From Burkholderiales bacterium (lineage in GTDB: Bacteria > Pseudomonadota > Gammaproteobacteria > Burkholderiales > SG8-41): a stretch of DNA of 61,731 nt. The stretch is from positions 1-61,731 of the forward strand of contig DATICE010000090.1 in assembly GCA_035456985.1 (NCBI GenBank), written 5' to 3'. The notes beneath the pieces are model-generated. The model worked only from the letters and a program-made list of their open reading frames with translations. It made no database searches and had not been told where the DNA came from. The position numbers were made by a program, and so were the translations under genes. Below are positions 4,802-33,067 of the stretch, one piece after another (the first letter of the stretch is position 1; every line of letters begins with the position of its first letter).

Positions 4802-4808
4802 GAACCGC

Positions 4809-11201: not shown

Positions 11202-11258
11202 CAGTTCGAAGCATTAGGGTAGACTATAACGCCGCGCCCATCCTGCCACTGCATCAAG

Positions 11259-11594: not shown

Positions 11595-11618
11595 GGCTCG
11601 CTCTCACTCGAGCCCGGG

Positions 11619-17733: not shown

Positions 17734-17764
17734 GCGAAGTGACAACAAGACAGGAGGAAATCCC

Positions 17765-18742
17765 ATGAACACCCGCATATTCAGCGTTCTTCTGCTGGCG
17801 CTTCTCGCCGGCGCAGCGGCGGCACAGGATTCGTATCCGAGCCGCCCGGTCACCATGATCGTGCCGTTTCCACCCGGGGGCGTGGCCGACCTCACCGGCC
17901 GGCCCATTGCCGCCGCGATGGAAAAGGTGCTGAAGCAGCCGATCGCGCCGGTCAACCGCGCGGGCGCCGGCGGAAAGGTCGGCTATGCGGCCGCGGCCAA
18001 CTCCAAGCCCGACGGCTACACCATGTTGATTGCGCTCTCCAGCGTCTCGATCTTCCCGGAGGTGGACCACCTGTTCAACCTCAAGCCGGCCTATACGCTG
18101 GACCAGCTCGTGCCGATCGCGCTGATCTCCGCCGACCCGACCATACTCGTGGTGCATCCATCGCTGCCGGCCAGGTCGGCAAAGGAGTTCATCGCGCTCG
18201 CGAAAAAGAACCCCAACGAGATTGCGTTCTCCTCGTCCGGCCTGTACGGCACGTTGCACATCGCGATGGAGATGGTGGTCCAATCTGCCGGCATCAAACT
18301 GCGGCACGTGCCGTTCTCCGGAGGTGGGCCCGCGGTCAGCGCGCTGCTTGGCGGACACGTGTTCGCGCTCTCCTCGGGACCCGCGGCGGCGATCGGCCAC
18401 CTGCGGGCGGGCAAGCTCCGCGCGCTCGCCAGCTGGGGCGACAAGCGGCTCGCCGCGTTGCCGCAGCTGCCGACGTGGAAGGAGCTCGGCTACAAGAACG
18501 TCGAGTTCTACATCTGGGCCGGGTTGATGGTGCCGAGCGGCACGCCGGAGGCGGCGATCAAGGCGCTGCGCGCCGCCGCGGCCAAAGGTGTCCAGGACTC
18601 GGGTTTCAAGGCGGTGATGGCCAAGCTCGAAACGCCCGTCAACTACCTCGATGCGCCCGAGTTCCGCAGTTTCTGGGACCGCGACGCCGAGCGTCTCGTG
18701 CGCACGGTACGGCGCGTGGGCAAGGTCGACGCCAAGAAATAG
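17765..18742 (+). CDS. tctC: Bug/TctC-family substrate-binding protein (adjacent to tctBA)
   Basis: AGGAGGA lies upstream of ATG 17765. A signal peptide is followed by YPSRPVTMIVPFPPGG. Confidence 0.92.
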   Translation: MNTRIFSVLLLALLAGAAAAQDSYPSRPVTMIVPFPPGGVADLTGRPIAAAMEKVLKQPIAPVNRAGAGGKVGYAAAANSKPDGYTMLIALSSVSIFPEVDHLFNLKPAYTLDQLVPIALISADPTILVVHPSLPARSAKEFIALAKKNPNEIAFSSSGLYGTLHIAMEMVVQSAGIKLRHVPFSGGGPAVSALLGGHVFALSSGPAAAIGHLRAGKLRALASWGDKRLAALPQLPTWKELGYKNVEFYIWAGLMVPSGTPEAAIKALRAAAAKGVQDSGFKAVMAKLETPVNYLDAPEFRSFWDRDAERLVRTVRRVGKVDAKK

Positions 18743-18994
18743 CGCGTCGAGGGGCGAAACAGCGATCGGCGGAACATGGAGCAGGGGCCCCGTTTACGGG
18801 GATGCGACCGTGCAGCCGATCAATGGCGCGTCGTTCAAGTGCCGATCCTGCGCGCGTCTCCGGGGTCAGACCCCAGAGGGTCCCTCTTCCGCCCGTCGAC
18901 GCGCCCCATTCATGGAGATGTGATCCCCGGTGACGCGCAGGGCGGCCGATACCATGTGTCCGATTATTTGCGATGACATGTCAGAGGCCGCGGG

Positions 18995-19498
18995 ATGGCG
19001 ACCGGTGGCCGGAAGGAAGTGGTGAGCGATCCGGAAGCAGAGCAGAAGCGCGGCGGTCTGAAGAGCGACCAGTTCTCCGGGCTGATGCTCGTCGCGCTTG
19101 CTCTCTACGTGGGGTGGGAGAACCGGGTATATCCGGTCGGGACCCTCCAGGAGCCCGGGCCCGGCTACATGCCGCTTCTCCTCGTGATCTTTCTCGGCGC
19201 GATGGGGCTGCTGATCGCGCTGTGGGGCGCGCGGTCGAAGCCGCTCGCCGCGATGCAATGGCCGGAGGCCACCCGCGCGGTCGTGATACTCGTCGCGTGC
19301 GGATTCGCCGCGTTCGCGCTGGAGCGGATCGGCTACCGGCTCACCGTGATCGCGCTCCTCGTCTTCCTCCTCGGCGTGCTCGAGCGCAAGCGGCCGGTGC
19401 CGGTGGCCCTGGTGGCGCTCGGCTTCAGCTTTGCCTCGTTCTACGTGGTGGGCGACCTGCTGCACGTGCCGCTTCCCCGGAGCCCCTGGGGCTTCTAA
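18995..19498 (+). CDS. tctB: TctB-family small membrane subunit
   Basis: 167 aa with 4 hydrophobic segments, positioned between tctC and tctA. The start is uncertain. Confidence 0.78.
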   Translation: MATGGRKEVVSDPEAEQKRGGLKSDQFSGLMLVALALYVGWENRVYPVGTLQEPGPGYMPLLLVIFLGAMGLLIALWGARSKPLAAMQWPEATRAVVILVACGFAAFALERIGYRLTVIALLVFLLGVLERKRPVPVALVALGFSFASFYVVGDLLHVPLPRSPWGF

Positions 19499-19522
19499 CC
19501 GGCGTCGGCCGCCACCGAATTA

Positions 19523-21040
19523 ATGGTTGAAACTTTCAACGATCTCCTGCTGGGCTTTTCGGTCGCACTACAGCCCTCGATCCTGGTCTATGCGTTCGTA
19601 GGCTGCGTGATCGGTACGCTGGTCGGCATGATGCCGGGCCTCGGGCCTCTCGCCGGCATCAGCCTGCTGCTGCCCGCGACGTTCGGACTGAATCCGATCA
19701 TCGCCATCGTGCTGCTCGCCGGCGTCTATTACGGCGCGATGTATGGCGGCTCCACGACCTCGATCCTGATGCGGATTCCCGGCGAGGCCGCCTCGGTGAT
19801 GACCTGCATCGACGGCTACGCGATGACGCAGAACGGCCGCGCCGGTCCGGCGCTCGCCATCGCCGCGATCGGCTCGTTCATTGCCGGGACGCTCGGCGTG
19901 ATCGGGCTCATGCTGCTCGCGCCCACTCTTGCAGCGTTTGCGCTGCGCTTCGGGCCGCCGGAGTATACGGCGCTGCTGTTGATGGGGCTGTTCATACTTG
20001 CCTACATGAGCGGCGGCTCGATGCTGAAGACGCTCGCCATGGCGGGGCTTGGCCTGCTGATCGGCATGATCGGCATCGACATCATGAGCGGCTACACGCG
20101 CTTCAGCTTTAACATCGTGGAACTCGGAGACGGCGTCGGCATCGTGCCGGTGGCGGTGGGGCTTTTCGGCGTATCCGAAATACTTTTGACGGCAGGCGGG
20201 GCAACGGCGCCCGACGTGCAGCGGCCGAAGCTGCGTGACCTGATTCCCTCGCGCGAGGAGTTTCGCCTCTCGGCGGGGCCGATCGCGCGCGGGAGCCTGC
20301 TCGGGTTCCTGATCGGCATCATTCCGGGTTCTGCGCACATCATCTCCTCCTTCGTGTCCTACGGCATCGAGCGCCGGATATCGAAGCATCCGGAGCGCTT
20401 CGGCAACGGCGCGATCGAGGGCGTGGCGGGACCCGAGTCCGCGAACAACGCCGCGGCGAGCGGCGCGTTCGTGCCGATGCTCGCGCTCGGAATCCCGACG
20501 AGCCCCGTCACCGCGGTGATGATCGCGGCCATCATGGTGCACGGCGTGCTGCCGGGCCCGATGCTGATCCAGCAGCAGCCGGAGCTGTTCTGGGGGTTCG
20601 TGGCGAGCATGTACGTGGGCAATGTGGTGCTGCTTATCCTGAACCTGCCGATGGTCGGGTTGTTCGTCAACCTGCTGCGCATCCCCTACAGCTATCTCTA
20701 CCCGTGCATCCTGTGCTTCTGCATCCTCGGCACCTATTCCGTGGCCAACAACCTGATCGACGTGTGGATCCTGCTCGCGATGGGCGCGATCGGCTACGTG
20801 TTGCGCAAGTTCCGTTACGATCTCGCGCCCGTGGCGCTGGGTCTGGTGCTGGCCCCGATGATCGAACTGTCGCTGCGGCAGTCGCTCGCGATGAGCGCGG
20901 GCGACTACGGCATCTTCCTCGAGCGCCCCATCGCCACCACGATGCTGGTGCTCGGGCTGATCATGTTCCTGTTCGCCCTCAAGCCGCTCGTCTTCAAGGG
21001 CAAGGACTGGCGGTCGACCGTAGGCCTCGAAAACGAGTGA
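19523..21040 (+). CDS. tctA: TctA-family large permease
   Basis: 505-aa polytopic protein with typical TctA N-terminal sequence (GCVIGTLVGMMPGLGP...YYGAMYGGSTTSIL). Confidence 0.93.
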   Translation: MVETFNDLLLGFSVALQPSILVYAFVGCVIGTLVGMMPGLGPLAGISLLLPATFGLNPIIAIVLLAGVYYGAMYGGSTTSILMRIPGEAASVMTCIDGYAMTQNGRAGPALAIAAIGSFIAGTLGVIGLMLLAPTLAAFALRFGPPEYTALLLMGLFILAYMSGGSMLKTLAMAGLGLLIGMIGIDIMSGYTRFSFNIVELGDGVGIVPVAVGLFGVSEILLTAGGATAPDVQRPKLRDLIPSREEFRLSAGPIARGSLLGFLIGIIPGSAHIISSFVSYGIERRISKHPERFGNGAIEGVAGPESANNAAASGAFVPMLALGIPTSPVTAVMIAAIMVHGVLPGPMLIQQQPELFWGFVASMYVGNVVLLILNLPMVGLFVNLLRIPYSYLYPCILCFCILGTYSVANNLIDVWILLAMGAIGYVLRKFRYDLAPVALGLVLAPMIELSLRQSLAMSAGDYGIFLERPIATTMLVLGLIMFLFALKPLVFKGKDWRSTVGLENE

Positions 21041-21229: not shown

Positions 21230-22078
21230 ATGAAATACCTGGCTCGGCCGGCATTGGGCATACTGGCGCTCTGCGCGGCGGTTGCCCTTGCGAGCGACGT
21301 CAAGGACGGCGGGCCATACGTGCCCACGCCCCAGGCCGTGGTGGACGCCATGCTCGAGATCGCCAAAGTCGGGCCGGGTGATTTTGTCGTCGACCTCGGT
21401 TCGGGCGACGGGCGCATCGTGCTGACGGGGGCGACACGCCGCAAGGCGAGTGGCATGGGCGTGGACATCGACGGCGAGCTGGTCGACCTCGCCAACACCT
21501 CGGCGCAGCGCCTCGGCGTCGCGGACCGCGTGCGGTTCCTCCGGCAGGACGTGCTCGAGGCCGATCTCAGCCGTGCGACCGTGCTCACGCTCTACCTGCT
21601 GCCGAACATGATGGAGCGGTTGCGGCCGAAGCTCCTGAAGGAGCTCAAGCCGGGCGCGCGCATCGTGTCACACGATTTCGATCTCGGCGAATGGAGGCCG
21701 GACCGCAGCGTGGACGTGCAGACTTCGGAAAAATACGACATCTCGGGCAGCTGGACCTCCACCGTGTACCTGTGGACGGTGCCCGCCGCCGTGGAAGGCG
21801 CCTGGGTCGGCAACGTGGACGGTGCGCGTGGCGCGGCCTTCCGGCTGGAGATCAAGCAGCGCTACCAGCAGCTCGAAGGCCGCCTGGTGCGCGACGCCAG
21901 GGCGATGACAGTGCGCGATGCGCGGATCGACGGCACGCGCATCCGCTTCAGCGCGCCGGGGGCGGACGGGCGGCTCGAAACCTATACCGGCACCGTCCAG
22001 GACGGGAGAATCACCGGCGAAGCGCGTTCCGGGGCCGGATCGACGACAGTGCGCTGGAGCGCCACCCGCGTTCCTTGA
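21230..22078 (+). CDS. Signal-peptide-bearing class I SAM-methyltransferase-fold protein, array paralog 1
   Basis: The N-terminus MKYLARPALGILALCAAVALA has an AxA site. It is followed by PYVPTPQAVVDAMLEIAKV, motif I VVDLGSGDGRIV, GVDID, LTLYLLP and VSHDF. The conserved C-terminal domain has WTVPAAVEGAW...EIKQRYQQLEG...F.G.V.DG.I.G...W.A.R. Confidence 0.88.
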   Translation: MKYLARPALGILALCAAVALASDVKDGGPYVPTPQAVVDAMLEIAKVGPGDFVVDLGSGDGRIVLTGATRRKASGMGVDIDGELVDLANTSAQRLGVADRVRFLRQDVLEADLSRATVLTLYLLPNMMERLRPKLLKELKPGARIVSHDFDLGEWRPDRSVDVQTSEKYDISGSWTSTVYLWTVPAAVEGAWVGNVDGARGAAFRLEIKQRYQQLEGRLVRDARAMTVRDARIDGTRIRFSAPGADGRLETYTGTVQDGRITGEARSGAGSTTVRWSATRVP

Positions 22079-22092
22079 AAGGCTGAAATTCC

Positions 22093-22968
22093 ATGGAAAC
22101 TCATCGTCACTTGACGCGCCGCCGCCTGCTGATCGCGCTCGGCGCACTCCCCCTTGCGCAGTACGCCACGGCCGCCGACATCGAGCTCGCCCGCACCGGC
22201 GGGCCGTACGTACCCACCCCGCAGATCGTGGTGGACGAGATGCTGCGCATGGCGAAGGTCGGCGCGGACGATTTCGTGGTCGACCTCGGCTCGGGTGACG
22301 GGATCATCGTGCTGACGGCGGCAACGCGCCTCAAGGCGCGGGGACTCGGAGTGGATATCGATCCCGAGCTCGTCCAGTTTTCGAACAGCGAGGCAAGGAA
22401 ACGCGGTGTGGCCGATCGCGCGAGCTTCCGCGTGATGGACGTGTTCAAGGCCGACATCAGCAAGGCGTCGGTGGTGACGCTCTACCTGCTGCCCGGGATG
22501 ATGACGGATCTGCGGCCGAAGATCTTCGGCGAGCTGAAGCCCGGCACGCGGGTCGTGTCGCACGACTATAGCTTCGGAGACGAGTGGCGCCCCGACGACC
22601 AGTACACCTGGGACGTTCCCGAGAAAGAAAAGGTGAACGGCGTCCCGCGGGCGACCATTTACCTCTGGATTATCCCCGCACAGGTCGCCGGCCGCTGGCA
22701 GCTCAACCTCGCCGCGCCCGTCGCGGAGCGTTACGACCTTGCTATCAAGCAGCGTTACCAGAGCCTTGAAGGCGTGGTCAGCGGCAGCGGAGCCAAAGGT
22801 GTCCGGCTCACGCAGTCGCATCTTCAGGGGGAAACCATCTCGTTCGCGTTCCCGGCAGGGGGCGACCGCCACCGCTTCAAGGGGCGCGTCTCGGGCAACA
22901 CCATGGAAGGCACGGTCGAGCTCGCCGGCGGCAAGGGCGCGGCGAAGTGGACCGCCACCCGCCTCTAG
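22093..22968 (+). CDS. Array paralog 2 (Tat-like signal)
   Basis: The N-terminus HLTRRRLLIALGALPLAQYATAA is Tat-like. It has the same methyltransferase core (VVDLGSGDGIIV) and C-terminal domain (WIIPAQVAGRWQL...AIKQRYQSLEG...FKGRVSGNTMEG). Confidence 0.88.
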   Translation: METHRHLTRRRLLIALGALPLAQYATAADIELARTGGPYVPTPQIVVDEMLRMAKVGADDFVVDLGSGDGIIVLTAATRLKARGLGVDIDPELVQFSNSEARKRGVADRASFRVMDVFKADISKASVVTLYLLPGMMTDLRPKIFGELKPGTRVVSHDYSFGDEWRPDDQYTWDVPEKEKVNGVPRATIYLWIIPAQVAGRWQLNLAAPVAERYDLAIKQRYQSLEGVVSGSGAKGVRLTQSHLQGETISFAFPAGGDRHRFKGRVSGNTMEGTVELAGGKGAAKWTATRL

Positions 22969-22983
22969 TTCCCCGGTTCGCCG

Positions 22984-23031
22984 AGGAAAATCATGGACTG
23001 ACCTGACACCGGGTCTGTCCCTGATTTTCCT
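22984..23031 (+). terminator. Long imperfect hairpin at the boundary of the AT-richer island (possible terminator)
   Basis: AGGAAAATCA (22984-93) pairs with TGATTTTCCT (23022-31). An inner GGAC/GTCC pairing is possible. A T-rich tail follows. The hairpin is 16 nt after the paralog 2 stop. Confidence 0.4.
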
Positions 23032-23170
23032 TTCCCTGCGCCGCTCCGCGGCGAACAGGGACCCCAAGAACGGCGGTTGTCGGCCAATACCGGACACTCG
23101 CTTGTCGCCCGGAATTGCTCCATTTCGGTGCCCGGCGTAACGTATTGGCGAGGTGACGGTTGGCGAGGAG

Positions 23171-23218
23171 TGTCAATTAACAAGTCAACTAATTTGTCAC
23201 CTAATAAGTCAACCAATT
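23171..23218. repeat. Four tandem 12-nt units (T/A)GTCA(A/C)NNAANN upstream of a small gene
   Basis: The sequence reads tgtcaattaaca agtcaactaatt tgtcacctaata agtcaaccaatt. It ends 31 nt before ATG 23250 in locally AT-rich DNA. Confidence 0.8.
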
Positions 23219-23249
23219 CACGTTAGACGCTTTTGGGCTCGGACGGCTC

Positions 23250-23594
23250 ATGAAGAGCTACACCTTATGGTTCGTCCTTCTGATTCTTCAGGCATTTCTT
23301 ACGTTCGGGCTTTACATGACATGGAGTACTTTCCAGAGTATTCACGACGACTCTCTGTCGAAGGCTTTGCGCGAGACAACTCGCATGGAAAGTCAAACCA
23401 TTGCTGCAGGTCCTGCGCGAACCGTTATTGATCAACAAGCCTTCCAGATTCACAGCGCACGCTCTGACCAAGCTGAGTTGCTCGAATGGACGTCGTGGTG
23501 GTTCTATCTATCTCTCGCGATCTTCGCTGTGCAACTTTCGGCTTTACTCGGAGTGCTCTTTCTTGGCCGACGAAAGCAGCATGAAAGCGTCTAA
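23250..23594 (+). CDS. Small hypothetical membrane protein (TM helix at each end)
   Basis: 114 aa with LWFVLLILQAFLTFGLYM and WWFYLSLAIFAVQLSALLGVLFL. Codon usage is AT-richer than in the neighbours. I preferred it over the overlapping ORF 23153-23431. Confidence 0.55.
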   Translation: MKSYTLWFVLLILQAFLTFGLYMTWSTFQSIHDDSLSKALRETTRMESQTIAAGPARTVIDQQAFQIHSARSDQAELLEWTSWWFYLSLAIFAVQLSALLGVLFLGRRKQHESV

Positions 23595-23770
23595 CCACGC
23601 GATCGACCGCGACGCCAGAAAGTGCTTCGCGCTTCCCGGCGCGCGTCATCGCGGACGTTATGCGATCGTTGGACGTGCGATGACGAAGCGGCGGGGGCGT
23701 TGCCATCAAGACTTCTGATGGAACAGGCGGGCTCATTGTCCGGCGAGCTCGGAAGAATGACCTTGCTGGA

Positions 23771-24211
23771 TTGCTGGCGTGTTTGGCCGTCGCTTTCGAA
23801 CCGTACCGGGAGAGCTACACGCCCGAGGCGTTCCGAGACACTGTGCTAACCGCCCACAACGCCGATCGGCGGTTGAGGGACATGATGGTTCTTGTTGCTG
23901 AAAACGATTCGGGCAGAATCGTCGGAACGATCGCGTATCAGGTGGTGGCCCCCGGGGAGGGGCACCTCCGTGGGATGGCCGTCGTTCCGGAGTCTCAAGG
24001 CCGAGGCGTTGCCGAACGGTTGCTCTTCGCTGCGGAAGACGGGCTGCGAAGGTTGGGATGCGTGCGCGTGACTCTGGACACCACGGAGCCTCTCAAGAGA
24101 GCCATTTCGTTCTACTCGCGACAGGGGTACAAGCCGACCGGCACGGTGAAGGATTTCTTCGGAATGCCGCTGTTCGCGTATGAGAAGTCCTGGAAGGGGG
24201 GCGCCGCATAA
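23771..24211 (+). CDS. GNAT acetyltransferase, 5' end possibly damaged
   Basis: The core is HLRGMAVVPESQGRGVAERLL...FYSRQGY. The first listed start is TTG 23771, but in-frame upstream codons (23735 onward) encode IVRRARKNDLAGLLA without a canonical start. Confidence 0.7.
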   Translation: MLACLAVAFEPYRESYTPEAFRDTVLTAHNADRRLRDMMVLVAENDSGRIVGTIAYQVVAPGEGHLRGMAVVPESQGRGVAERLLFAAEDGLRRLGCVRVTLDTTEPLKRAISFYSRQGYKPTGTVKDFFGMPLFAYEKSWKGGAA

Positions 24212-24237
24212 CCACCGCGCAAAGTCACAGGAACCGG

Positions 24238-25842
24238 TCAGTTGACCAGGAACGCCGCCGGCAGCGACTGCACCACCGCGCGCCGGTAGACGATCTGGCT
24301 CTCCGCGATGTCGAACAGCGCCCGGTTGCGGGCGTCGGTCACGATCTCCCCGTCCCGCAGGAGCCCCAGGTCGAGCGTGAGCGGGCGCTCGAGCATGGCG
24401 TCGAGCGCCGCGGTGTGCTGCAAGGGCACGTAATCGAGCAGGATCTGCTGCGGCGCGGGCAGCGGGCGCGTGCCGGCGACAATGAAGCTGTTGATATGCG
24501 CCACTCCCAGCCAATCCGGCCGGTAGAGAACCATGTGGGGTAGTTCCTCGCGCAGCGTGGCAAGGAGATGCGCGTATGCGACCGGATGCTCGAGATCGGC
24601 AAAAGTGTTGAATACCGCGATGCCGTCGGGTACGAGGCAGCGCCTCAGGTCGGCGAAGAAATCCCGCGTGACGAGGTAGTCCGGAGTGCCGTCGCCGTGG
24701 AACAAGTCCACGACAATCAGGTCGTGGGCGCGGCTGCAGCGCTTCAACTGGGTGCGCGCGTCTGCGAGATGCACGCGCACGCGCGCGGGGTCGAAGCCGA
24801 AGTAGCGAGTGGCAGCCTCGAGCGAGGCGGGATCGATCTCGACCGCTTCGACATCCACCCCGTTCCTGGCAAGGCGCATCGGCACGATGCCCGCCCCGAG
24901 GCCGAGCACCAGCGCCGAGCCGATGCGGGGGCGATAAGCATAGGCGAGGGCCTCCAGCGCGTAGGTGTAGAACGACAGCGAGCGGCCGTTGGAGGCGACC
25001 GTGTTCTGCACCAGCCCGTCCTGGAAGTAGATGCGGGAGTAGAGGCCGGTGACGTCGGGGTCGCTGCGCAGGATCTTCACTGTCCCGAACAGGGAGCGGA
25101 AGCTCGCCTCGACCCGCCAGACCTTGCCCCCGTAGACTGCCGGCCACATGCGCCCGGTATAGGCGTCGGCCTGCCACAGCATCAGCCCCGCGACGAGCGT
25201 CGCGGCGGCGCCGGCGAGCCCCACCCGGACGCGGCCGGCGAGCGGCGCGGGCAGCCGCGCTGCGACGGCGAGCGGGAGCAGCGCCATCAATAGAGCCACC
25301 ACCAGCGTCGCCGAAAAGTTGTTCAGGTAGTGGATCAACCCGAAGCCGGTGGCGAGCACGCCCGCGACCGAGCCGAGCGTGCTGACAAAGAAAACCGTGC
25401 CGGAGCCGGCGTCGGCCGGACGCCCGCCGCCGCGCGCCATGAGGATAGCCACCAGCAGCGGGTTCATCGCCGAGGCCGCGAACAGCGGCACGAACAGCAG
25501 CGTCAGGCACGCCACGAACGCCCCCGTCACGAGGTCTGCGCTGGCAAGCTTTGGAAAAAGCCAGGGATAGGCGAGACAGGCCGCGGCGATGGCCAGGGAG
25601 GCGACGGCCGGCATTACCGCGAAGAGAAGCGTCAGGCGGGCCAGGTTGCCGGTGGCGCGCCGGCCGGCGGCGAGGCGGCCCCCCGCCCAGTAGCCGAGCG
25701 CGAGCGCGATCAACGTGATCGAGAGAATTCCAGTCCAGATATACAGGCTGACGCCGAAGTAGGGCGTCAAGATTCGCGAAGCGAGGAGCTCCAGCGCGAG
25801 CACGGAGGCGCCGGAGAGAAAGAGGATGGCGTAGAGAATCAT
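24238..25842 (-). CDS. Membrane-fused spermidine-synthase-like protein (polytopic N-terminus plus SpeE-type class I MTase-fold C-terminus)
   Basis: MILYAILFLSGASVLALELLASRILTPYFG is followed by about 7 hydrophobic segments. The C-terminal part has VLGLGAGIVP...VEIDP...DLIVVDLF. An alternative start at 25902 adds 20 aa. The rest of the 865-aa track ORF is antisense to paralog 3. Confidence 0.85.
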   Translation of the reverse strand: MILYAILFLSGASVLALELLASRILTPYFGVSLYIWTGILSITLIALALGYWAGGRLAAGRRATGNLARLTLLFAVMPAVASLAIAAACLAYPWLFPKLASADLVTGAFVACLTLLFVPLFAASAMNPLLVAILMARGGGRPADAGSGTVFFVSTLGSVAGVLATGFGLIHYLNNFSATLVVALLMALLPLAVAARLPAPLAGRVRVGLAGAAATLVAGLMLWQADAYTGRMWPAVYGGKVWRVEASFRSLFGTVKILRSDPDVTGLYSRIYFQDGLVQNTVASNGRSLSFYTYALEALAYAYRPRIGSALVLGLGAGIVPMRLARNGVDVEAVEIDPASLEAATRYFGFDPARVRVHLADARTQLKRCSRAHDLIVVDLFHGDGTPDYLVTRDFFADLRRCLVPDGIAVFNTFADLEHPVAYAHLLATLREELPHMVLYRPDWLGVAHINSFIVAGTRPLPAPQQILLDYVPLQHTAALDAMLERPLTLDLGLLRDGEIVTDARNRALFDIAESQIVYRRAVVQSLPAAFLVN

Positions 25843-25923
25843 GTCGATCGCTTGAGTCGGGTATAATCCGGGCCTTTCCGGAATCGCCGGTTCCACCGGC
25901 ATCAGATCGGAATTTAACCACAG

Positions 25924-26838
25924 ATGCCGCTCCCGCCGCGCTGGCACAAGGTCCCGGCCGCCGCCCGCTTCGCAATTCACGTGACGACGCTGGCGGCGCT
26001 CTCGCTGTCGCCGGCACGCGCTCTCGAACCCAGGGTGCCGTACGTTCCGACGCCGCAGGAAGTGGTGGAGCGTATGCTGGAAATCGCCAAGGTCGGCCCG
26101 CACGACTATCTGATCGACCTGGGCTCCGGAGACGGTCGCATCGTGGTCACCGCGGCGAGGAAATACGGGACGCGCGGCTTCGGCGTGGACTTGAATCCCG
26201 AGCGCATCCGGGAGAGCACGGAAAACGCGCGGCGGGCGGGCGTCAGCGACAAGGTTGCCTTCTACCAGCGCGACCTGTTCGAGACCAACCTCGCCGACGC
26301 CACGGTCATCACCATGTACCTGCTGCCCCAGGTCAACATCGAGTTGCGGCCGAGACTGCTCGAGTTGAAGCCCGGCACGCGCCTCGTCTCCCACGATTTC
26401 GATATGGACGACTGGAAGCCGGACACCCATATCAAGATCGACGCACAGGACAAGTACGGCGGCGCCGGCGGGCAAAGCGACATCTACTTCTGGATCGTGC
26501 CGGCCCGCGTTGCCGGGGTGTGGCGGTGGGAGCTGCCGGTCTCGGGCAAGCCGCTCGACTACGAGGTAACGCTGCAGCAGAGATACCAGGTGTTCACGGG
26601 GTCGGCCGCGGTCGGCGGCCGCTCGGCCAAGCTGCAGAACGCGCGCCTGCGGGGCGACACGATCCGGTTCTCGTTCACAGTGGAAGTGAACGGCGCGCCG
26701 GTAAAGCACGAGTTCAGCGGCAGGGTCGCGGGCGAAACCGTCACCGGCTCGGCGCGTTTGTCGGGCGCCCGCCTGCAGGGGCAGCACGAATGGAGCGCGC
26801 GGCGCATCGCGCCGGCGCCGCTCACCGCGCTCCACTGA
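25924..26838 (+). CDS. Array paralog 3
   Basis: The hydrophobic N-terminus ends in ARA. It is followed by VPYVPTPQEVVERMLEIAKV, LIDLGSGDGRIV, GVDLNP, ITMYLLP and VSHDF. The C-terminal domain has FWIVPARVAGVWRW...TLQQRYQVFTG...FSGRVAGETVTG...WSARR. Confidence 0.88.
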   Translation: MPLPPRWHKVPAAARFAIHVTTLAALSLSPARALEPRVPYVPTPQEVVERMLEIAKVGPHDYLIDLGSGDGRIVVTAARKYGTRGFGVDLNPERIRESTENARRAGVSDKVAFYQRDLFETNLADATVITMYLLPQVNIELRPRLLELKPGTRLVSHDFDMDDWKPDTHIKIDAQDKYGGAGGQSDIYFWIVPARVAGVWRWELPVSGKPLDYEVTLQQRYQVFTGSAAVGGRSAKLQNARLRGDTIRFSFTVEVNGAPVKHEFSGRVAGETVTGSARLSGARLQGQHEWSARRIAPAPLTALH

Positions 26839-26840
26839 GA

Positions 26841-27734
26841 ATGTTCCGCAGGATCCTCGTCGCGTGTCTCATCGCGACCCCGGTGGCTGCGCAGGATTGG
26901 GGCGATACCCCGTACGTACAGACGCCGCAGAACGTGGTGGACACGATGCTCGAGATCGCCAAGGTCGGCCCCCGCGATTACGTCATCGACCTCGGCTCGG
27001 GCGACGGGCGCATGGTGATCACGGCGGCGAAGAAATACGGCGCGCGCGGCTTCGGCGTCGACCTCGACCGGAAGCTCGTCGCGCTCGCCAATCGCAACGC
27101 CCGCCAGGCCGGCGTTGCGAACCGGGCGGTGTTCTATCAGCGCGACCTGCACGAGACCGACGTCAGCGCCGCCACGGTCATGAGCATCTATCTGCTGCCG
27201 GAAGTGAACCTGATGATCCGCTCGCGGCTCCTCGCGACCCTGAAGCCCGGCACGCGCATCGTGTCCCACGACTACGGCATGGGCGAGTGGCAGCCCGATT
27301 ACCAGACGGAGCTGGACGCCCCCGGCAAACCGGTCGGAATTTCCCAGCGCAGCAAGATCTTTTACTGGATGGTGCCGGGCCGCGCCGCCGGGCGCTGGTT
27401 CTGGCGGCTCGCGGGGGACGCCAAGCCCGCCGAGTTCGAGCTCGCCCTCCAGCAGAATTTCCAGGCGATCGACGGCACGCTCAAGACGGGCGGAAGCACC
27501 GTCCGCGTGGAAAACGCCAGGCTCGCCGGCGAGGACATCGCCTTTTCCGCGGCGGTGGGCGGGGCCAGGTACGAGTTCACCGGCCGCATCCACCGCCACA
27601 CGATCGAGGGCAAGGCGCGCGTTCTCCGCGGCGCGGAAGCACGGGAACTGCCGTGGTCCGCGACACGCACCGAGGTCTGGGACCCGCGGCACGCGTCCCT
27701 GACGACGGAACAGGCGCTCAAGGAAATCCATTGA
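26841..27734 (+). CDS. Array paralog 4
   Basis: ATG lies 2 nt after the paralog 3 stop. The N-terminus is MFRRILVACLIATPVAA. The same core (VIDLGSGDGRMV) and C-terminal domain are present. The track start at 26520 is an over-extension. Confidence 0.88.
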   Translation: MFRRILVACLIATPVAAQDWGDTPYVQTPQNVVDTMLEIAKVGPRDYVIDLGSGDGRMVITAAKKYGARGFGVDLDRKLVALANRNARQAGVANRAVFYQRDLHETDVSAATVMSIYLLPEVNLMIRSRLLATLKPGTRIVSHDYGMGEWQPDYQTELDAPGKPVGISQRSKIFYWMVPGRAAGRWFWRLAGDAKPAEFELALQQNFQAIDGTLKTGGSTVRVENARLAGEDIAFSAAVGGARYEFTGRIHRHTIEGKARVLRGAEARELPWSATRTEVWDPRHASLTTEQALKEIH

Positions 27735-28573
27735 ATCTGCGTTTATCCGCCGTTGCATTGCTCCTCTCCGGCAGCGCGCTCGCGGCCGCGCCGGGCACGT
27801 TTCCCGATGTCCCGACACCCTATCTGCCCTCCACCGAGATCGCGGTCGACGAGATGCTGCGGCTCGCGGGCACCGGCCCCGACGACCTGGTGGTCGATCT
27901 CGGCTCCGGCGACGGACGGGTGGTGATCGCTGCTGCGCGCGACTACGGCGCACGCGGACTCGGCATCGAGATCGACCCGAAGCTGGTCGCGGAAAGCGAG
28001 GCCAACGCGCGGCGGGCGGGGGTCGCGGAACGCGTCGCCTTCCGGCAGGGTGACGTCCTCGCTGCGGAGTACCGGAATGCCACCGTAGTTACGCTCTACC
28101 TGCTGCCCGGCTTGGTGGACAAGCTCAAGCCCCGTCTGCTCGCCGAGCTCCGGCCCGGCACCCGCATCGTTGCGCACGATTACGGGTTCACGGACTGGAA
28201 GCCTGATCGCAGCGTCGTAATCTCCAAGACCTACCATCTGTACCTCGTGCCGGCGGCCATCGCGGGAAAATGGCGGCTGCACGCAACGCTGCCAGAGGGC
28301 GAGCGCGAGTTCGCATTCGAGCTCGAGCAGCGCTACCAGGAAATCCGCGGCGGGGCACGCGTCGCCGGGGGCTATCTGCCCGCATTCGAAGCGCGGCTCG
28401 CGGGCGACCGCATCGCCTTCGTGCTGGTGGACGGCGGGACGAGCCACCGCTTCGAGGGTACGGTGCAGGGCACGCTTCTGATGGAAGGCACGGTGCGCTC
28501 GGGCCCCGGGCGCACCCCGGCCGCCGGCTCCTGGCGCGCGACGCGGGTTGTGCGCGGCGGTGACGAGGGATAG
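27731..28573 (+). CDS. Array paralog 5
   Basis: TTG start overlaps the paralog 4 stop (TTGA), with AAGGAAA upstream. The N-terminus is (M)NLRLSAVALLLSGSALAA. The core has VVDLGSGDGRVV. The track start at 26864 is an over-extension. Confidence 0.82.
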   Translation: MNLRLSAVALLLSGSALAAAPGTFPDVPTPYLPSTEIAVDEMLRLAGTGPDDLVVDLGSGDGRVVIAAARDYGARGLGIEIDPKLVAESEANARRAGVAERVAFRQGDVLAAEYRNATVVTLYLLPGLVDKLKPRLLAELRPGTRIVAHDYGFTDWKPDRSVVISKTYHLYLVPAAIAGKWRLHATLPEGEREFAFELEQRYQEIRGGARVAGGYLPAFEARLAGDRIAFVLVDGGTSHRFEGTVQGTLLMEGTVRSGPGRTPAAGSWRATRVVRGGDEG

Positions 28574-28590
28574 CGAACCCGAGTGACGCG

Positions 28591-29436
28591 GTGACGAAGC
28601 TCGTTCAAACAGGCCTCGTTTTTCTTGGCGTCCTGGCAGCTCAGTTCGCTCCTGCGCAGGAGGACGCCCTCCACAAGCGCGAAGTACCGTACGTTGCGAC
28701 GCCCCAGGTCACGGTGGACGAGATGTTGCGGCTCGCGGCGGTCGGACCGGAGGATTTCATCATTGACCTGGGTTCGGGCGACGGGCGGATCGTTGTCACC
28801 GCGGCCAAAAAATTCGGCGCACGCGGCCTGGGCGTGGATATCGACTGGCGCCTCGTCAACCAGGCCGAAGAGAACGCGCGGCAGGCGGGGGTGGCTGACC
28901 GCGCCAGGTTCCTCGAGCAGGACTTGTTCCAGGCCGATCTCGGTCAGGCGACCGTGATCACTGCCTACCTGCTTCCATTCGTCATGCTCAAGCTGCGTCC
29001 CAAGCTGTTAGCCCTCAAACCCGGCACGCGCATCGTGTCGCACGACTTTGATTTCGGCGACTGGCCGCCCGACCGCAAGACCAGCGTCCGGAAGAATGTG
29101 TATCTCTGGATCGTGCCGGCCCAGGCAGCCGGGCGCTGGCTGGCGCGGCTCGAATTGCCGCCGATCGAGCGCCTGTTCGAGCTGGAAATAAAGCAGCGCT
29201 ACCAGGAGGTATCGGCGCACGCGCGCCTGAACGGCGTACCCTCCCCGGTGTGGGAAACGAAGCTCGTGGGAGACCGCCTGAGCTTCGTCGTGGTGGACGC
29301 GACCGACCGTGACGACGAGGCAAGCTTTTATTTCGACGGCCGGGTGAGCAGTGATGTCATCGAGGGCGAACTGGCGCGTGGAGTCGGCGCCGGGCGCAGC
29401 GTGACCCGCTGGCGCGCGGTGAGGGTCGGTCAATGA
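28591..29436 (+). CDS. Array paralog 6
   Basis: GTG start. The N-terminus is MTKLVQTGLVFLGVLAAQFAPA. The core has IIDLGSGDGRIV. The C-terminal domain has WIVPAQAAGRW...EIKQRYQEVS...FDGRVSSDVIEG...WRAVR. Confidence 0.86.
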   Translation: MTKLVQTGLVFLGVLAAQFAPAQEDALHKREVPYVATPQVTVDEMLRLAAVGPEDFIIDLGSGDGRIVVTAAKKFGARGLGVDIDWRLVNQAEENARQAGVADRARFLEQDLFQADLGQATVITAYLLPFVMLKLRPKLLALKPGTRIVSHDFDFGDWPPDRKTSVRKNVYLWIVPAQAAGRWLARLELPPIERLFELEIKQRYQEVSAHARLNGVPSPVWETKLVGDRLSFVVVDATDRDDEASFYFDGRVSSDVIEGELARGVGAGRSVTRWRAVRVGQ

Positions 29437-29440
29437 CGGG

Positions 29441-29581
29441 TTGCCTCGCAAGCCGGCCGGGCGGCCGCTGCGCCTGGAGAGCGGCAGGATGCGTGGCGAC
29501 GAGATTCGTCTTATGCTCACGGCGAAGGTCGAGGGCCGGGCGCTGCGCCAGGAGTTCCACGGGCGCGTGGAATCTGTAACT
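29441..29581 (+). pseudogene. Relic of an eighth paralog (C-terminal-domain fragment only)
   Basis: The translation AGRPLRLESGRMRGDEIRLMLTAKVEGRALRQEFHGRVES aligns without gaps to paralog 3 GGRSAKLQNARLRGDTIRFSFTVEVNGAPVKHEFSGRVAG at about 50 percent identity. It has no methyltransferase domain, and only a TTG codon lies at its 5' end. Confidence 0.65.
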
Positions 29582-29597
29582 TGTATCCGGAAAAGGA

Positions 29598-30530
29598 ATG
29601 GACATGAACAGGGCGGCAGGTTGGATGAGGATTCTTGCGGTTTCGGCCGCGCTGTTCGCGCCGGCGGCCGCGGCGCAGGAGGGACGCGGCGACGTGATCT
29701 ACGTGCCGACGCCCCAGGTGGTGGTCGACGCAATGCTGCGGATGGCGAAAGTCGGCGCCAAGGATTTCCTGATCGACCTCGGCTCCGGCGACGGGCGCAT
29801 CGTCATCACCGCGGCGAAAAAGCACGGCGCGCGCGGCTTCGGAGTGGACCTCGACACCTACCTCCTGAAGATGGCCAATGCCAACGCGAGAAGGGAAGGC
29901 GTGGCCGACCGCGCGCGCTTCATCGAGCAGAATCTGTTCGAGACCGATCTCTCCCAGGCCAGCGTGATCACGAGTTACCTCCTGCCCGGCATGAACGAGC
30001 AGCTGCGCCCGAAGCTCCTCGCGCTGAAGCCCGGCACGCGCCTGGTGGCGCACGATTACGCGATGGGGGAGTGGGACCCGGATGATTCGGAAACGCTGAT
30101 CGTGCCGGAGAAGACGGTGGGTGATCCCGGCAAGAGCTACATTTTCTTCTGGATCGTGCCGGCCCGCGTCGCCGGCCGCTGGGAGTCGCAGATCATGGCC
30201 GCCGGCAAGCCCGAGTCGTGGCAGTTCAACTTCCAGCAGAATTTCCAGCTGGTGCATGGCACTGCGCTGGCAGGCAAGCGGGAGGTGAAGGTGCCGCAGT
30301 TCCGGATGGCGGGCGAGCAGCTCGCGTTCAAGGTCGAAGTCCCGGGGGCCGGCAAGCCCGTCACCTACCAGTTCCGGGGCTGGGCGAAAGGCGATGTGAT
30401 CGAGGGCAATGTGGTCGCGGGCGGGGACTCCGGCCAGCGGGTGATGCCGTGGCGGGCGACGCTGAGAGCGCGGGGCGAGCCCTACATGGGCGCAGCCGGC
30501 GCCATCGCCGTCGCAGGCGCCAACCGATGA
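29598..30530 (+). CDS. Array paralog 7
   Basis: The N-terminus is MDMNRAAGWMRILAVSAALFAPAAAA. The core has LIDLGSGDGRIV. The C-terminal domain has FWIVPARVAGRWES...NFQQNFQLVHG...FRGWAKGDVIEG...WRATLR. The start could also be 29604 or 29625. Confidence 0.86.
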   Translation: MDMNRAAGWMRILAVSAALFAPAAAAQEGRGDVIYVPTPQVVVDAMLRMAKVGAKDFLIDLGSGDGRIVITAAKKHGARGFGVDLDTYLLKMANANARREGVADRARFIEQNLFETDLSQASVITSYLLPGMNEQLRPKLLALKPGTRLVAHDYAMGEWDPDDSETLIVPEKTVGDPGKSYIFFWIVPARVAGRWESQIMAAGKPESWQFNFQQNFQLVHGTALAGKREVKVPQFRMAGEQLAFKVEVPGAGKPVTYQFRGWAKGDVIEGNVVAGGDSGQRVMPWRATLRARGEPYMGAAGAIAVAGANR

Positions 30531-31894
30531 GCGCCCCCGCTCAGCAGCAGAGTGCGGGAGGCCACCCGCGCCCGACGCTCACGGTGTTCGACGCGGTGGC
30601 GATGATCGTCGGCATCGTGATCGGTGTCGGCATCTTCAAGGCGCCGTCGATCGTGGCCGGCAACGTCTCCGGCGAAGGTGCATTTATTGCGCTGTGGGTT
30701 GCCGGTGGCGTGGTCTCGCTCATAGGCGCGCTGTGCTATGCCGAGCTCGGCAGCTCGCACCCGAACGCCGGGGGCGAGTACTACTTCCTCAGCAAGGCCT
30801 ACGGCAACTGGCTGGGATTTCTGTTTGCGTGGGCGCGCATGACGGTGATCCAGACCGGCGCGATCGCCGCGATCGCATTCGTGTTCGGCGATTACGCGAC
30901 CGCATTGCTGCCGCTGGGCGCGAAGAGCGCCGCAATCTATGCCGGGATCGCGGTGGTCGCAATCACGGCCCTCAACGTATCCGGTACCCACGAGAGCAAA
31001 TGGGTGCAGAACGTTCTGACCACGGCGCTCGCGCTCGCCGTTCTCGCCGTCGTGGTGAGCGGCCTCACCGCGCCCGGCACGCCGGCCACGGTGGCGCCGG
31101 CGGCCACCGACGCCAAGCCGTGGTTCTCGGGGCTTGCCCTGATCTTCGTGCTGCTCACTTACGGCGGCTGGAACGAGGCCGCCTATCTCACGGCCGAGAT
31201 GCGCGACACGCGTCGCAATATCGTGCGCGCGCTGGTGATTGGCATCGTCGTGATTACCCTGCTCTATGTGCTGCTCAATCTGGCCTACCTCAGGGTGCTG
31301 GGGCTCGGCGGCATGCAGGCCTCCAGGACGATCGCGTCCGATCTCATGCGCGCGACCTGGGGCGAGGGCGGGGCGTGGCTGCTCGGAATCGTGGTCGTGT
31401 GCGCTGCGCTCTCGACGCTTAACGCAACAGTATTCACGGGGGCGCGCACCAATTACGCGCTCGGCCGGGACTACGTGATCTTCCGCGGTCTCGGCCGCTG
31501 GGACGACAAGTCCTCCGCCCCGGTTAACGCGCTGCTCACACAGGGCGCGATCTCGCTCGCGCTGGTCGGGCTCGCGTCCTTCACTCCCGACGGCTTCCAG
31601 ACCATGGTCGCCTATACCGCGCCGGCGTTCTGGCTGTTCTTCCTGCTGACCGGCGTGTCGCTCTTTCCGCTGCGGCGGCACGCGCCGGCCAACGCGGACC
31701 CGTTCCGCGTGCCGCTCTATCCGCTGACGCCGCTCTTGTTCGCCGCGGCGTGCGCCTATATGCTGTATTCGAGCTTCAACTACGCGATGAGCCTCGACCC
31801 GGGCTCGATCGGCGCGATGGTAGGCATCGCGATGCTCGCTTCCGGCGTGCCGGTGCTGATGTGGGCGCGCCGGCGCGCCGCGGAGAGCCGCTGA
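30527..31894 (+). CDS. APC-superfamily amino acid/polyamine permease
   Basis: ATG overlaps the paralog 7 stop (ATGA). 455 aa with about 12 TM segments. Typical motifs are GVGIFKAP and YAELGSSHPNAGGEYYF. The track start at 30218 is an over-extension. Confidence 0.9.
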   Translation: MSAPAQQQSAGGHPRPTLTVFDAVAMIVGIVIGVGIFKAPSIVAGNVSGEGAFIALWVAGGVVSLIGALCYAELGSSHPNAGGEYYFLSKAYGNWLGFLFAWARMTVIQTGAIAAIAFVFGDYATALLPLGAKSAAIYAGIAVVAITALNVSGTHESKWVQNVLTTALALAVLAVVVSGLTAPGTPATVAPAATDAKPWFSGLALIFVLLTYGGWNEAAYLTAEMRDTRRNIVRALVIGIVVITLLYVLLNLAYLRVLGLGGMQASRTIASDLMRATWGEGGAWLLGIVVVCAALSTLNATVFTGARTNYALGRDYVIFRGLGRWDDKSSAPVNALLTQGAISLALVGLASFTPDGFQTMVAYTAPAFWLFFLLTGVSLFPLRRHAPANADPFRVPLYPLTPLLFAAACAYMLYSSFNYAMSLDPGSIGAMVGIAMLASGVPVLMWARRRAAESR

Positions 31895-31908: not shown

Positions 31909-33003
31909 TTACCGGTTACCCTGCAACACCTTTACCTGGGCGGGGTTGATCCCGACCTTGACGTGCACGCCCGGCGCGAAGCCGGCCTCGCCTATGTAGT
32001 GGGGTTGATCCACGATCAGGCTCCCGGTACCCACTTTCACGTTATAGCGCACGAATTCCCCGAGGAATTCGCGCTCGGTCACCGTGCCCTCGAGCCAGCT
32101 CCGGCCGCGATCGGGCGGGGTGCCGGGCGCGGTGAGTTGCATGGCGTGAGGCCGGATTGCGATTTCCGCCGGTCCGCTCGATGCAGCCGCGTTGGCGAGC
32201 ACAATCGCACCGAGTGTTTCACTGCGAAACACTACGCCGGCGTCGGATGTCTCGAGCGCGCCCTGCAGGAAGTTGATGGTGCCGACGAAGGTGGCGATGA
32301 AGCGGTTCGCCGGGGTGTCGTAGAGCTCGACCGGCGTGCCGACCTGCTGGATGACGCCTTGATCGAGCACCGCCACGCGGTCGGAGATCGAGAGCGCCTC
32401 CTCCTGGTCGTGGGTCACGAAAATCGTGGTGATACCGAGCTTGCGCTGCAGCGCGAGCAGCTCTCCGCGCATGTGGATGCGAAGCTTCGCATCGAGGTTC
32501 GAAAGCGGCTCATCGAGCAGCAGCACTTTGGGCTCGATGGCGATGGTGCGGGCGAGCGCGACGCGCTGCTGCTGCCCGCCCGAAAGCTGCCCCGGCCGGC
32601 GCGCGCCGAGCTCGCCGAGCCCGACGAGCTCGAGCGCCGCGGCGGTCCGGCGCTCGATCTCCGCGCGCGGGAGCCTGCGTTCCTCCAGCCCGAATGCCAC
32701 GTTTTGCCGCACCGTCATGTGCGGCCACAGCGCGTAATTCTGGAACACCATCCCGATGTCGCGCTCCCACGGCGGCACGCGGGTGATGTCCTCGCCGCCG
32801 ACGCGTATCGCGCCCGCCTGCGGACGGAGAAATCCCGCAAGAAGACGCAGCAGCGTCGACTTCCCGGATCCCGAGGGGCCGAGGAGGGCGAAGAACTCGC
32901 CCGGCTCGATTGCGATACTGACGTCGGTCAGCACCCGCGTCTTGCCGTACGCGAGAGAGACTTTCTCGAACTCGACCCTGACCTTCTTGAACGCTTCAGC
33001 CAT
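31909..33003 (-). CDS. ABC importer ATP-binding protein (PotA/FbpC type)
   Basis: Walker A GPSGSGKST, signature LSGGQQQRVALAR, Walker B LLLDEPLS, and a C-terminal regulatory/TOBE-like domain. Confidence 0.93.
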   Translation of the reverse strand: MAEAFKKVRVEFEKVSLAYGKTRVLTDVSIAIEPGEFFALLGPSGSGKSTLLRLLAGFLRPQAGAIRVGGEDITRVPPWERDIGMVFQNYALWPHMTVRQNVAFGLEERRLPRAEIERRTAAALELVGLGELGARRPGQLSGGQQQRVALARTIAIEPKVLLLDEPLSNLDAKLRIHMRGELLALQRKLGITTIFVTHDQEEALSISDRVAVLDQGVIQQVGTPVELYDTPANRFIATFVGTINFLQGALETSDAGVVFRSETLGAIVLANAAASSGPAEIAIRPHAMQLTAPGTPPDRGRSWLEGTVTEREFLGEFVRYNVKVGTGSLIVDQPHYIGEAGFAPGVHVKVGINPAQVKVLQGNR

Positions 33004-33020
33004 CAGGCGGTCCGCCCTTC

Positions 33021-33062
33021 ATCCTTCATCCTTCATCCTTCATCCTTCATCCTTCATCCTTC
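33021..33062 (-). repeat. Perfect heptanucleotide tandem repeat (GAAGGAT)x6 in the permease-ATPase spacer
   Basis: The plus strand reads atccttc x6. On the coding strand each unit carries an AGGA plus an ATG. The repeat lies between the permease stop (33068) and the ATPase ATG (33003). Confidence 0.95.
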
Positions 33063-33067
33063 AACCG

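Follow-up and report, generated by a model that had tools for sequence, protein, structure and literature searches.

The closest described relatives of the proteins considered here are aKMT, a broad-specificity protein-lysine methyltransferase of Sulfolobus islandicus, and the mitochondrial FAM173 proteins, of which aKMT is a published homolog (human FAM173A and FAM173B; PMC9006661, PMC5828452). Permeases of the APC family that carry the cofactor S-adenosylmethionine (SAM) are known from yeast (Sam3) and Candida (Gap4) (PMC3670898, PMC5177730), and counter-exchange of SAM for S-adenosylhomocysteine (SAH) is known in bacteria from CTL843 (PMC3104491). Here we describe a locus of a soil Burkholderiales bacterium (assembly GCA_035456985.1, contig DATICE010000090.1) that combines aKMT-like genes with the gene of an APC amino acid exchanger. 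The whole stretch of 61,731 nt (61.7 kb) that was analysed is called the window, and all coordinates refer to it. Seven paralogous genes, P1 to P7, lie on its plus strand at 21230-30530, and each encodes a protein of 280-310 aa with a signal-like N-terminus, a methyltransferase core and a C-terminal beta-barrel. We tentatively read the locus as a periplasmic methylation module in which exported N-methyltransferases would take their specificity from the barrel and would share one exchanger swapping SAM for SAH, a reading that we rate somewhat short of an even chance. The genes on which it is built are listed below, with the ratio of nonsynonymous to synonymous substitution rates (dN/dS) against their orthologs.

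21230-22078, plus strand: P1; barrel at 21782-22075; signal MKYLARPALGILALCAAVALA; match to family model NF041081 at 127 bits; ortholog in related locus L001 67% identical; dN/dS 0.29.
22093-22968, plus strand: P2; barrel at 22675-22965; putative twin-arginine-type signal TRRRLLIALGALPLAQYATAA; dN/dS 0.23.
25924-26838, plus strand: P3, first gene of the operon that runs from P3 to the APC exchanger; barrel at 26500-26835; AlphaFold2 (AF2) model with a predicted local distance difference test score (pLDDT) of 86.9 and a predicted TM-score (pTM) of 0.80.
26841-27734, plus strand: P4; barrel at 27375-27731; signal MFRRILVACLIATPVAA; ortholog in L020 81% identical; dN/dS 0.24.
27731-28573, plus strand: P5, with a TTG start; barrel at 28250-28570; ortholog in L020 85% identical; dN/dS 0.16.
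28591-29436, plus strand: P6, with a GTG start; barrel at 29116-29433; ortholog in L020 81% identical; dN/dS 0.20.
29598-30530, plus strand: P7; barrel at 30159-30527; stop codon overlapping the permease start; dN/dS 0.30.
30527-31894, plus strand: APC amino acid exchanger (permease) of SLC7/LAT type; Pfam AA_permease_2 at E 1e-50; dN/dS 0.10.

The seven open reading frames (ORFs) were found where a preliminary description of this DNA had placed them, and the spacings that it gave for P3 to P7 (2, -4, 17 and 161 nt) were reproduced exactly, P5 starting 4 nt before the end of P4. P1 and P2 are separated by 14 nt and both come after tctA, and an ATGA overlap joins P7 to the downstream permease gene. 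P3 to P7 and the permease form a single tightly packed unit, divergent from a gene for a spermidine-synthase-like (SpeE-like) membrane protein, so that the operon previously proposed for P3 to P7 stands and reaches further, into the permease. No eighth intact copy was found elsewhere in the window. Alignment of the seven proteins with MAFFT gave 50 invariant columns, including DLGSGDG, YLLP, HD, W..PD and the C-terminal W.A, and together with the AF2 model it bears out the three-part architecture described earlier. Full-length identity to P1 among the paralogs was 41-48%. The cores are 47-64% identical to each other (mean 56) and the C-terminal domains 22-41% (mean 32); the earlier estimate of 40-65%, made by eye, therefore suits the core and is too high for the C-terminal domain.

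Pfam recognized in the window proteins only generic methyltransferase families, all in the core, and the thousands of homologs retrieved with P3 carry no other names than 'SAM-dependent methyltransferase' (class I) or 'hypothetical'. The family model NF041081 ('protein-lysine N-methyltransferase, archaeal', that is, aKMT) matched the paralogs at 110-132 bits (E 1e-32 to 1e-38), all seven below its equivalog cut-off of 200 bits. Because the scores fall short of this cut-off, the window proteins are, as far as profile matches can tell, homologous to aKMT but not its equivalogs, and make up a subfamily distinct from the characterised cytosolic enzyme. A profile of the seven paralogs found the Protein Data Bank (PDB) entry 5bxy at E 7e-63 and the Sulfolobus aKMT structures (5fa8, 5fad, 5jwj) at about 1e-50, and Foldseek placed the P3 model on 5bxy and aKMT with TM-scores of 0.89-0.92 and 45-51% identity. 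The SAH complex in 5bxy shows that this bacterial branch binds SAH. The name 'RNA methyltransferase' of that entry is the label of its depositors, and no supporting assay was found when we looked for one.

The conservation of the SAM site was counted over 150 relatives of nearly full length, drawn from many phyla. It is 97-100% for motif I (DLGSGDG); beta2 ends in an acidic residue (D/E) in all 150, and every one of them has the D/N of motif III. All seven paralogs carry these features. That the site has been retained in working form looks firm from this degree of conservation. Residues common to aKMT beyond the cofactor pocket are also kept, namely the PYVPTP pre-motif, the (Y/F)LL after beta4, H148 and W155, and the 'pre-MTase' segment (V)PYVPTP, present in all seven paralogs, aligns residue by residue with aKMT and 5bxy. 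The resemblance to FAM173 suggested in the preliminary description holds by transitivity, since the cores are clear homologs of aKMT and aKMT is in turn a homolog of FAM173A/B (PMC9006661, PMC5828452). Every characterised aKMT/FAM173 member N-methylates lysine-like primary amines, and by analogy the paralogs may well do the same. Signal-bearing copies that consist of the core without a barrel were also seen, at 10001-10477 of locus L013 and 8613-9089 of L014; they are about 65% identical to the core of P1 and lie directly after tctA, where the window has P1.

A scan of one genome per species gave at least 582 relatives. Most loci hold one or two copies, and a set of Burkholderiales metagenome-assembled genomes (MAGs) have arrays of 5-10. 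Each window paralog has a one-to-one ortholog, in the same order, in the loci L020, L001, L016, L006, L021 and L012, with identities of 55-85%, higher than for any pair of window paralogs (at most 52%), and dN/dS of P1 to P7 against these orthologs is 0.16-0.30. On these comparisons the expansion is old, as had been supposed, every remaining copy is under purifying selection, and divergence is concentrated in the barrel. Because the core stayed constant (56%) while the barrel diverged (32%), with one-to-one orthologs and dN/dS of 0.16-0.30, we infer that the paralogs were sub-functionalised by substrate. The largest array seen, ten tandem paralogs at 1912-11980 of the Burkholderiales MAG contig L068, includes several copies with putative twin-arginine signals; its members share no more than 36-54% identity with the window paralogs, a hint that this array expanded independently.

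The 161 nt between P6 and P7 had been given as a plain gap. The length was right, but the spacer holds a relic of about 120 nt.

29454-29572, plus strand: relic of a deleted eighth paralog, the 3' end of its barrel domain; reads GRMRGDEIRLMLTAKVEGRALRQEFHGRVES.

This relic matches an extra paralog of L020 at 81% nucleotide identity over 119 nt (E 8e-29) and 71% amino acid identity over 38 aa, and the extra paralog lies intact between the orthologs of P6 and P7 in L020, L001, L006, L021, L012 and L025. Judging from these matches the spacer is the deletion scar of an eighth copy, and since relatives keep the extra paralog and the window its relic, the ancestral array had eight copies.

The C-terminal domain, of about 100 aa, is the part that the preliminary description could not place. 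Foldseek with the whole P3 model recovered only the methyltransferase core, and the domain was therefore modelled and searched on its own. AF2 gave an all-beta, nine-strand, up-and-down antiparallel barrel (pLDDT 88.9) with G-x-W in its first strand (G190 97% and W192 99% conserved) and a conserved terminal W-x-A-x-R, a combination that we take to be the calycin signature. The matches of the barrel in the PDB are at the level of the fold only, with E about 0.01 (best 8e-3, at TM 0.55) and TM-scores of 0.4-0.63, and the proteins matched are without exception small barrels that bind ligands, namely Cap15, FABP/CRBP, Rv2717c, Tp0751 and a lipocalin-like protein of Bacteroides. The domain can now be placed by fold as a calycin-like barrel, with no significant sequence or structure match to any known calycin family in Pfam, NCBIfam or Foldseek searches and no model of it in the Pfam and NCBIfam libraries. 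The fold-level likeness to Cap15 was also considered as a hint of a defence function and rejected, because it goes no deeper than the fold.

A profile search with the barrel over 1.84 billion representatives returned 3060 clusters at 50% identity. The barrel occurs alone, as one or two copies after a methyltransferase, in 2-8 tandem copies, and in 16 copies in one protein of 3047 aa. The repeat proteins inspected begin with signal peptides, the 3047-aa protein has a type IX secretion system (T9SS) sorting domain, and the names are 'hypothetical', some of these proteins giving sub-threshold matches to Pfam Calycin_like and Lipocalin_4. The type fused to methyltransferases carries a specific Q-x-(Y/F)-Q motif. 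Stand-alone barrel proteins, considered as possible partners, were not found near any methyltransferase in 80 loci. As modelled, and in view of these arrangements, the barrel is a mobile extracytoplasmic module, calycin-like, and a large family of its own that lacks a family model. It may supply target selectivity, and as a target selector it would explain why divergence between retained paralogs is concentrated in it. Family members of about 380-400 aa also exist: the representatives P0184, P0186, P0197, P0238 and P0252, of about 390 aa, carry two barrels after the core, and a 380-aa copy lies at 5689-6831 of locus L080.

The N-termini were examined with pattern heuristics of our own, not with a trained predictor, in 154 family ORFs from Burkholderiales, 'delta' proteobacteria, Alphaproteobacteria, Bacteroidota, Melioribacteraceae, Aminicenantes and Fervidibacterota. 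In the window copies one to four K/R residues are followed by 11-16 uncharged residues (21 in P5), then by an AxA-type site and lastly, just before PYVPTP, by a segment that is neutral or acidic. Of the 154 ORFs, 145 have a hydrophobic segment and, a few residues ahead of PYVPTP, an AxA-type site; the exceptions are mostly cut by contig ends. The N-terminus of P2 reads TRRRLLI, against the Tat consensus (S/T)-R-R-x-F-L-K; RRR is kept in the P2 ortholog of L001 in a formal motif scan and appears in the N-terminal listing of the L016 ortholog (MLRRRVLAAL). R-R-x-hydrophobic-hydrophobic occurs in about 15 of 151 family members, some of them canonical (TRRQFIA, SRRELLI). The AxA-ending signals described earlier were recovered in all seven copies, and the N-terminus of P2 resembles a twin-arginine signal. 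Of the outcomes that the preliminary description had named as refuting it (membership in a characterised cytosolic family of known substrate, N-termini unlike signals or anchors, loss of SAM-binding residues in the paralogs), none was observed. The distribution of charges and the short hydrophobic regions argue for an N-in/C-out orientation with cleavage, that is, for a periplasmic enzyme. That the paralogs are built for export looks firm on these patterns, and export and cleavage probably take place.

The same N-termini could instead be uncleaved anchors holding a cytoplasmic catalytic domain, as in FAM173A/B, with cytoplasmic loops of membrane proteins, for example of the permease, as targets. 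FAM173B does have an N-terminal transmembrane segment before the same 'pre-MTase' and methyltransferase domains, FAM173A methylates a membrane carrier (PMC9006661, PMC5828452), and with the active site in the cytoplasm the SAM paradox disappears. The hydrophobic regions, however, are only 11-16 residues long, with K/R on the N-side, a neutral or acidic C-side and AxA-type ends, which predicts cleavage and a C-out orientation, some copies have twin-arginine motifs, and the other homes of the barrel are secreted proteins. The permease, tried as a methylation target, was rejected, as no lysine is invariant or even at least 90% conserved among its 21 orthologs. The sequence patterns thus disfavour an anchor facing the cytoplasm, and we consider it the least probable of the readings weighed here.

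The proteins might also be exported without turning over, either as binding proteins for SAM, SAH or nucleosides that scavenge or sense for the permease, or as single-use enzymes pre-loaded with SAM. The Tat pathway exports folded, cofactor-loaded proteins, which would suit the putative Tat-type signal of the P2 lineage, and a neighbouring amino acid-type permease would suit the uptake of a SAM-like compound. Most copies, however, have Sec-type signals and would cross the membrane unfolded, and the residues shared with aKMT extend beyond the SAM pocket (Y/F-L-L, H148, W155, PYVPTP). APC carriers have no known use of binding proteins, and a single ligand would hardly account for seven copies that have diverged and are under selection. 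We regard this explanation as very unlikely, if slightly less so than the anchor.

The neighbours of the methyltransferases were surveyed by tblastn and by clustering the ORFs within 4 kb of them in 80 fetched loci. The permease adjoins a methyltransferase in 25 of these 80 and is the sole neighbour common across phyla, the linked loci including Stella vacuolata, Sphingomonas, Rhodospirillales, Prolixibacteraceae, Mariniphaga, Balneolaceae, Melioribacteraceae and Fervidibacterota. The permease and methyltransferase genes always share a strand and are direct neighbours, in either order, and the rest of the neighbourhoods are unrelated (L048 and L080 share nothing else). The other clusters were the SpeE-like protein in one clade, Bug/TctC receptors, which Burkholderiales often carry, and, next to a separate subfamily, prfB/lysS. 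Both the APC permease and the SpeE-like protein had been named in the preliminary description as possible conserved neighbours; conservation across phyla was found for the first, and for the second only within Burkholderiales arrays. The reverse test, with a profile of 21 permease orthologs and 80 metagenome loci, found a methyltransferase alongside in 55 of the 80, and by our own count in about 26 of the 35 loci (~74%) in which the permease is flanked by 1.2 kb or more on each side. The two-gene module is also present in a cultured organism whose genome is complete, Stella vacuolata ATCC 43931 (AP019702), with the methyltransferase at about 2,496,154-2,497,017 and the permease immediately upstream. 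From this conserved adjacency the functional tie of the methyltransferases to one exchanger looks firm.

The best PDB matches of the permease are xCT, BasC, b0,+AT, y+LAT and LAT1 (E 1e-49 to 1e-43), and its score against TIGR00911 (195 bits, cut-off 702) is too low for an equivalog of the eukaryotic LATs. These nearest structural relatives are obligatory exchangers, and y+LAT swaps cationic for neutral amino acids. The permease is 47-56% identical between phyla and, with its dN/dS of 0.10, highly constrained, and a single one accompanies from one to at least seven methyltransferases. Its consensus keeps the alpha-amino-acid-binding motifs of SLC7, GxGIF in the first transmembrane segment and YGGWN in the sixth.

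The module that we tentatively favour would then work as follows. All seven proteins would be exported, six by Sec-type signals and the P2 lineage by a putative twin-arginine signal, and would act outside the cytoplasm as SAM-dependent N-methyltransferases of the aKMT/FAM173 (lysine/primary-amine) type. The core would be the constant part and the fast-diverging barrel the variable part that chooses the target, which could be lysine residues in certain envelope proteins, or else lipids or small molecules that bear an amine. The single co-translated exchanger would serve all paralogs through their one common ligand, sending SAM out and taking SAH back like the mitochondrial and chlamydial SAM/SAH carriers. 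A shared cofactor fits better than a copy-specific substrate because there is one conserved carrier for one to at least seven enzymes, and an exchange of SAM for SAH would resolve the paradox of a cofactor-dependent enzyme in the periplasm. SAM as the cargo of the window carrier is suggested by synteny.

The exchanger could instead carry the methyl acceptor or product (a free amino acid, a polyamine or a betaine precursor) of periplasmic enzymes that receive SAM by another route; amines outside the cytoplasm would then be converted in order to detoxify them, to form osmolytes or to condition nutrients. The SLC7 alpha-amino-acid motifs are consistent with this, as the closest relatives of the permease move ordinary amino acids, and so are the resemblance of the barrel to small-molecule binders and the presence of the SpeE-like protein in Burkholderiales arrays. 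Yeast Sam3 itself carries polyamines too (PMC3670898). This explanation, on the other hand, leaves the supply of SAM unaccounted for, outside one Burkholderiales clade the module has no SpeE-like gene, and one conserved permease (dN/dS 0.10) would have to serve from one to at least seven enzymes whose barrels are about 32% identical. It suits the pattern of one carrier for many enzymes less well than a SAM/SAH exchange does, and appears to us possible though doubtful.

Several observations weigh against the SAM/SAH exchange module. About a quarter of the exchanger orthologs with adequate flanks have no adjacent methyltransferase, and a whole methyltransferase subfamily adjoins prfB/lysS without an exchanger. 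The signal calls depend on heuristic patterns, lysine specificity is extrapolated from relatives that are about 45% identical and have neither signal nor barrel, and the structural matches of the barrel are weak (E about 0.01, TM 0.4-0.6), so that ligand binding is an analogy at the level of the fold. We know of no periplasmic pool of SAM, and exporting this cationic molecule would run against the membrane potential if no other ion were coupled to it. No SAM riboswitch was found (the Rfam scan of the window was empty, and nine diverse loci gave tRNAs only), and there is no gene of the SAM cycle near the module.

Between P2 and P3 lie three further genes, of which only the last recurs in other arrays.

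23250-23594: small ORF with two transmembrane segments; no family match.
23771-24211: GNAT acetyltransferase, between P2 and the SpeE-like gene.
24238-25842, minus strand: fused seven-transmembrane/spermidine-synthase-like (SpeE-like) protein, divergent from P3; NF037959 at 158 bits.

The start of the SpeE-like gene at 25842 follows public gene calls. Its product matches NF037959 ('fused MFS/spermidine synthase') well above the cut-off of 40 bits, and Pfam Spermine_synth at 32 bits. Orthologs are near-full-length in 10 loci and partial in three more, all of them Burkholderiales arrays. All 11 orthologs compared show seven hydrophobic segments and a concentration of K/R in loops 2, 4 and 6, and because of this segment count and the positive-inside rule the SAM-fold domain is predicted to face the periplasm. 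In spermidine synthase the Asp of GGGDG selects decarboxylated SAM and D-S-T-D-P is the putrescine site. The SpeE-like protein has LGLGAG as motif I and DLFHGDGTPDYL at the second site, both in all 11 orthologs; we therefore rejected it as a true spermidine synthase, since motif I reads GLGAG and not GGGDG and the D-S-T-D-P site is not matched. It could be a second extracytoplasmic SAM-family enzyme of the cluster.

The GNAT gene and the small ORF, considered as parts of the system, were dropped because they are absent from every related locus. They lie in an islet of lower GC (23130-24211, 0.61 against about 0.67) with an AT-rich stretch of repeated (A)AGTCAAC motifs at about 23170-23225, and as its contents occur in no related array, the islet looks like a local insertion. 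Directly upstream of P1, at 17696-21040, is a TctC/TctB/TctA tripartite tricarboxylate transporter; TctA followed by a methyltransferase recurs in L001, L002, L006, L013 and L014, all close relatives. The downstream ABC transporter (31909-34804, minus strand) is of a generic PhnT2/PotA type and was set aside as uninformative. A PADLOC match to mad2 of the MADS anti-phage system covers only about 130 residues of the Rossmann core (E about 1e-16); it was discarded because the SpeE-like protein matches equally well and there are no partner genes. The subfamily linked to prfB/lysS is single-copy, has a mature end reading ...DAGPYVPSPQ and lacks an adjacent permease; it was seen in 11 Burkholderiales loci (L007, L009, L017, L019, L023, L026, L027, L029, L031, L035 and L046).

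To our knowledge, SAM-dependent chemistry in bacteria is taken to be confined to the cytoplasm, and the phrase 'periplasmic methyltransferase' does not occur in a corpus of about 8.3 million full texts. The widest form of our proposal is that diderm bacteria of several phyla have a dedicated extracytoplasmic methylation, in which an SLC7-type exchanger, swapping SAM for SAH, keeps a periplasmic SAM pool that feeds exported aKMT-type enzymes with target-picking calycin barrels, one Burkholderiales clade having expanded it to 5-10 enzymes and the SpeE-like membrane protein. We hold this to be quite doubtful, more so than the exchange reading of the present locus. If true, it would be the first periplasmic methyl-transfer pathway with the first bacterial SAM exporter, and would add a new pathway of envelope modification; SLC7-type carriers would gain a new class of substrate, and a large unannotated family of barrel domains a function. 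This family of signal-bearing methyltransferases is large, broad in its phylogenetic range and under strong selection; its SAM site is intact, and it is linked to one exchanger gene. These features make both extracytoplasmic methylation and its SAM supply directly testable.

Compared with the described systems, the cores share with aKMT (5fa8/5fad/5jwj), FAM173A/ANT-KMT and FAM173B/ATPSc-KMT the seven-beta-strand fold, the VPYVPTP pre-motif, the D-L-G-x-G-D-G motif I, the acidic end of beta2, (D/N)-x-F, (Y/F)LL and S-H-(D/E)-F, at about 45% identity. FAM173 proteins have an N-terminal hydrophobic segment as well (PMC9006661). However, aKMT has no signal and FAM173 an anchor, whereas the window proteins have cleavable-looking Sec or Tat signals and add the C-terminal barrel and the link to an APC exchanger; signal, barrel and exchanger link are all undescribed for the aKMT/FAM173 family. 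A published lysine methylome of Synechocystis, considered as a case of an aKMT-type enzyme, concerns CpcM, which is not of this type. The closest solved relative of the core, 5bxy from Salinibacter ruber (a structural genomics entry, in complex with SAH), is 51% identical with a TM-score of 0.91, but is a core of only 158 aa with no barrel. With the calycin barrels (lipocalins, FABP/CRBP, the Cap15 barrel and bacterial lipocalin-like proteins) the C-terminal domain has in common the up-and-down antiparallel barrel, the G-x-W of the first strand and, beyond the last strand, a conserved Arg; it differs from them in having no significant match and in being a family of its own with no Pfam model. 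Finally, the mitochondrial SAMC (SLC25A26), CTL843 of Chlamydia (DMT family) and the putative Golgi carrier samt-1 also pair the methyltransferase of a compartment unable to make SAM with a carrier, and have in common that SAM is brought in and SAH removed (PMC3104491, PMC4667130, PMC7614267). The window carrier differs from them in being an SLC7/LAT-type APC protein, and the compartment that it would serve is the bacterial periplasm.

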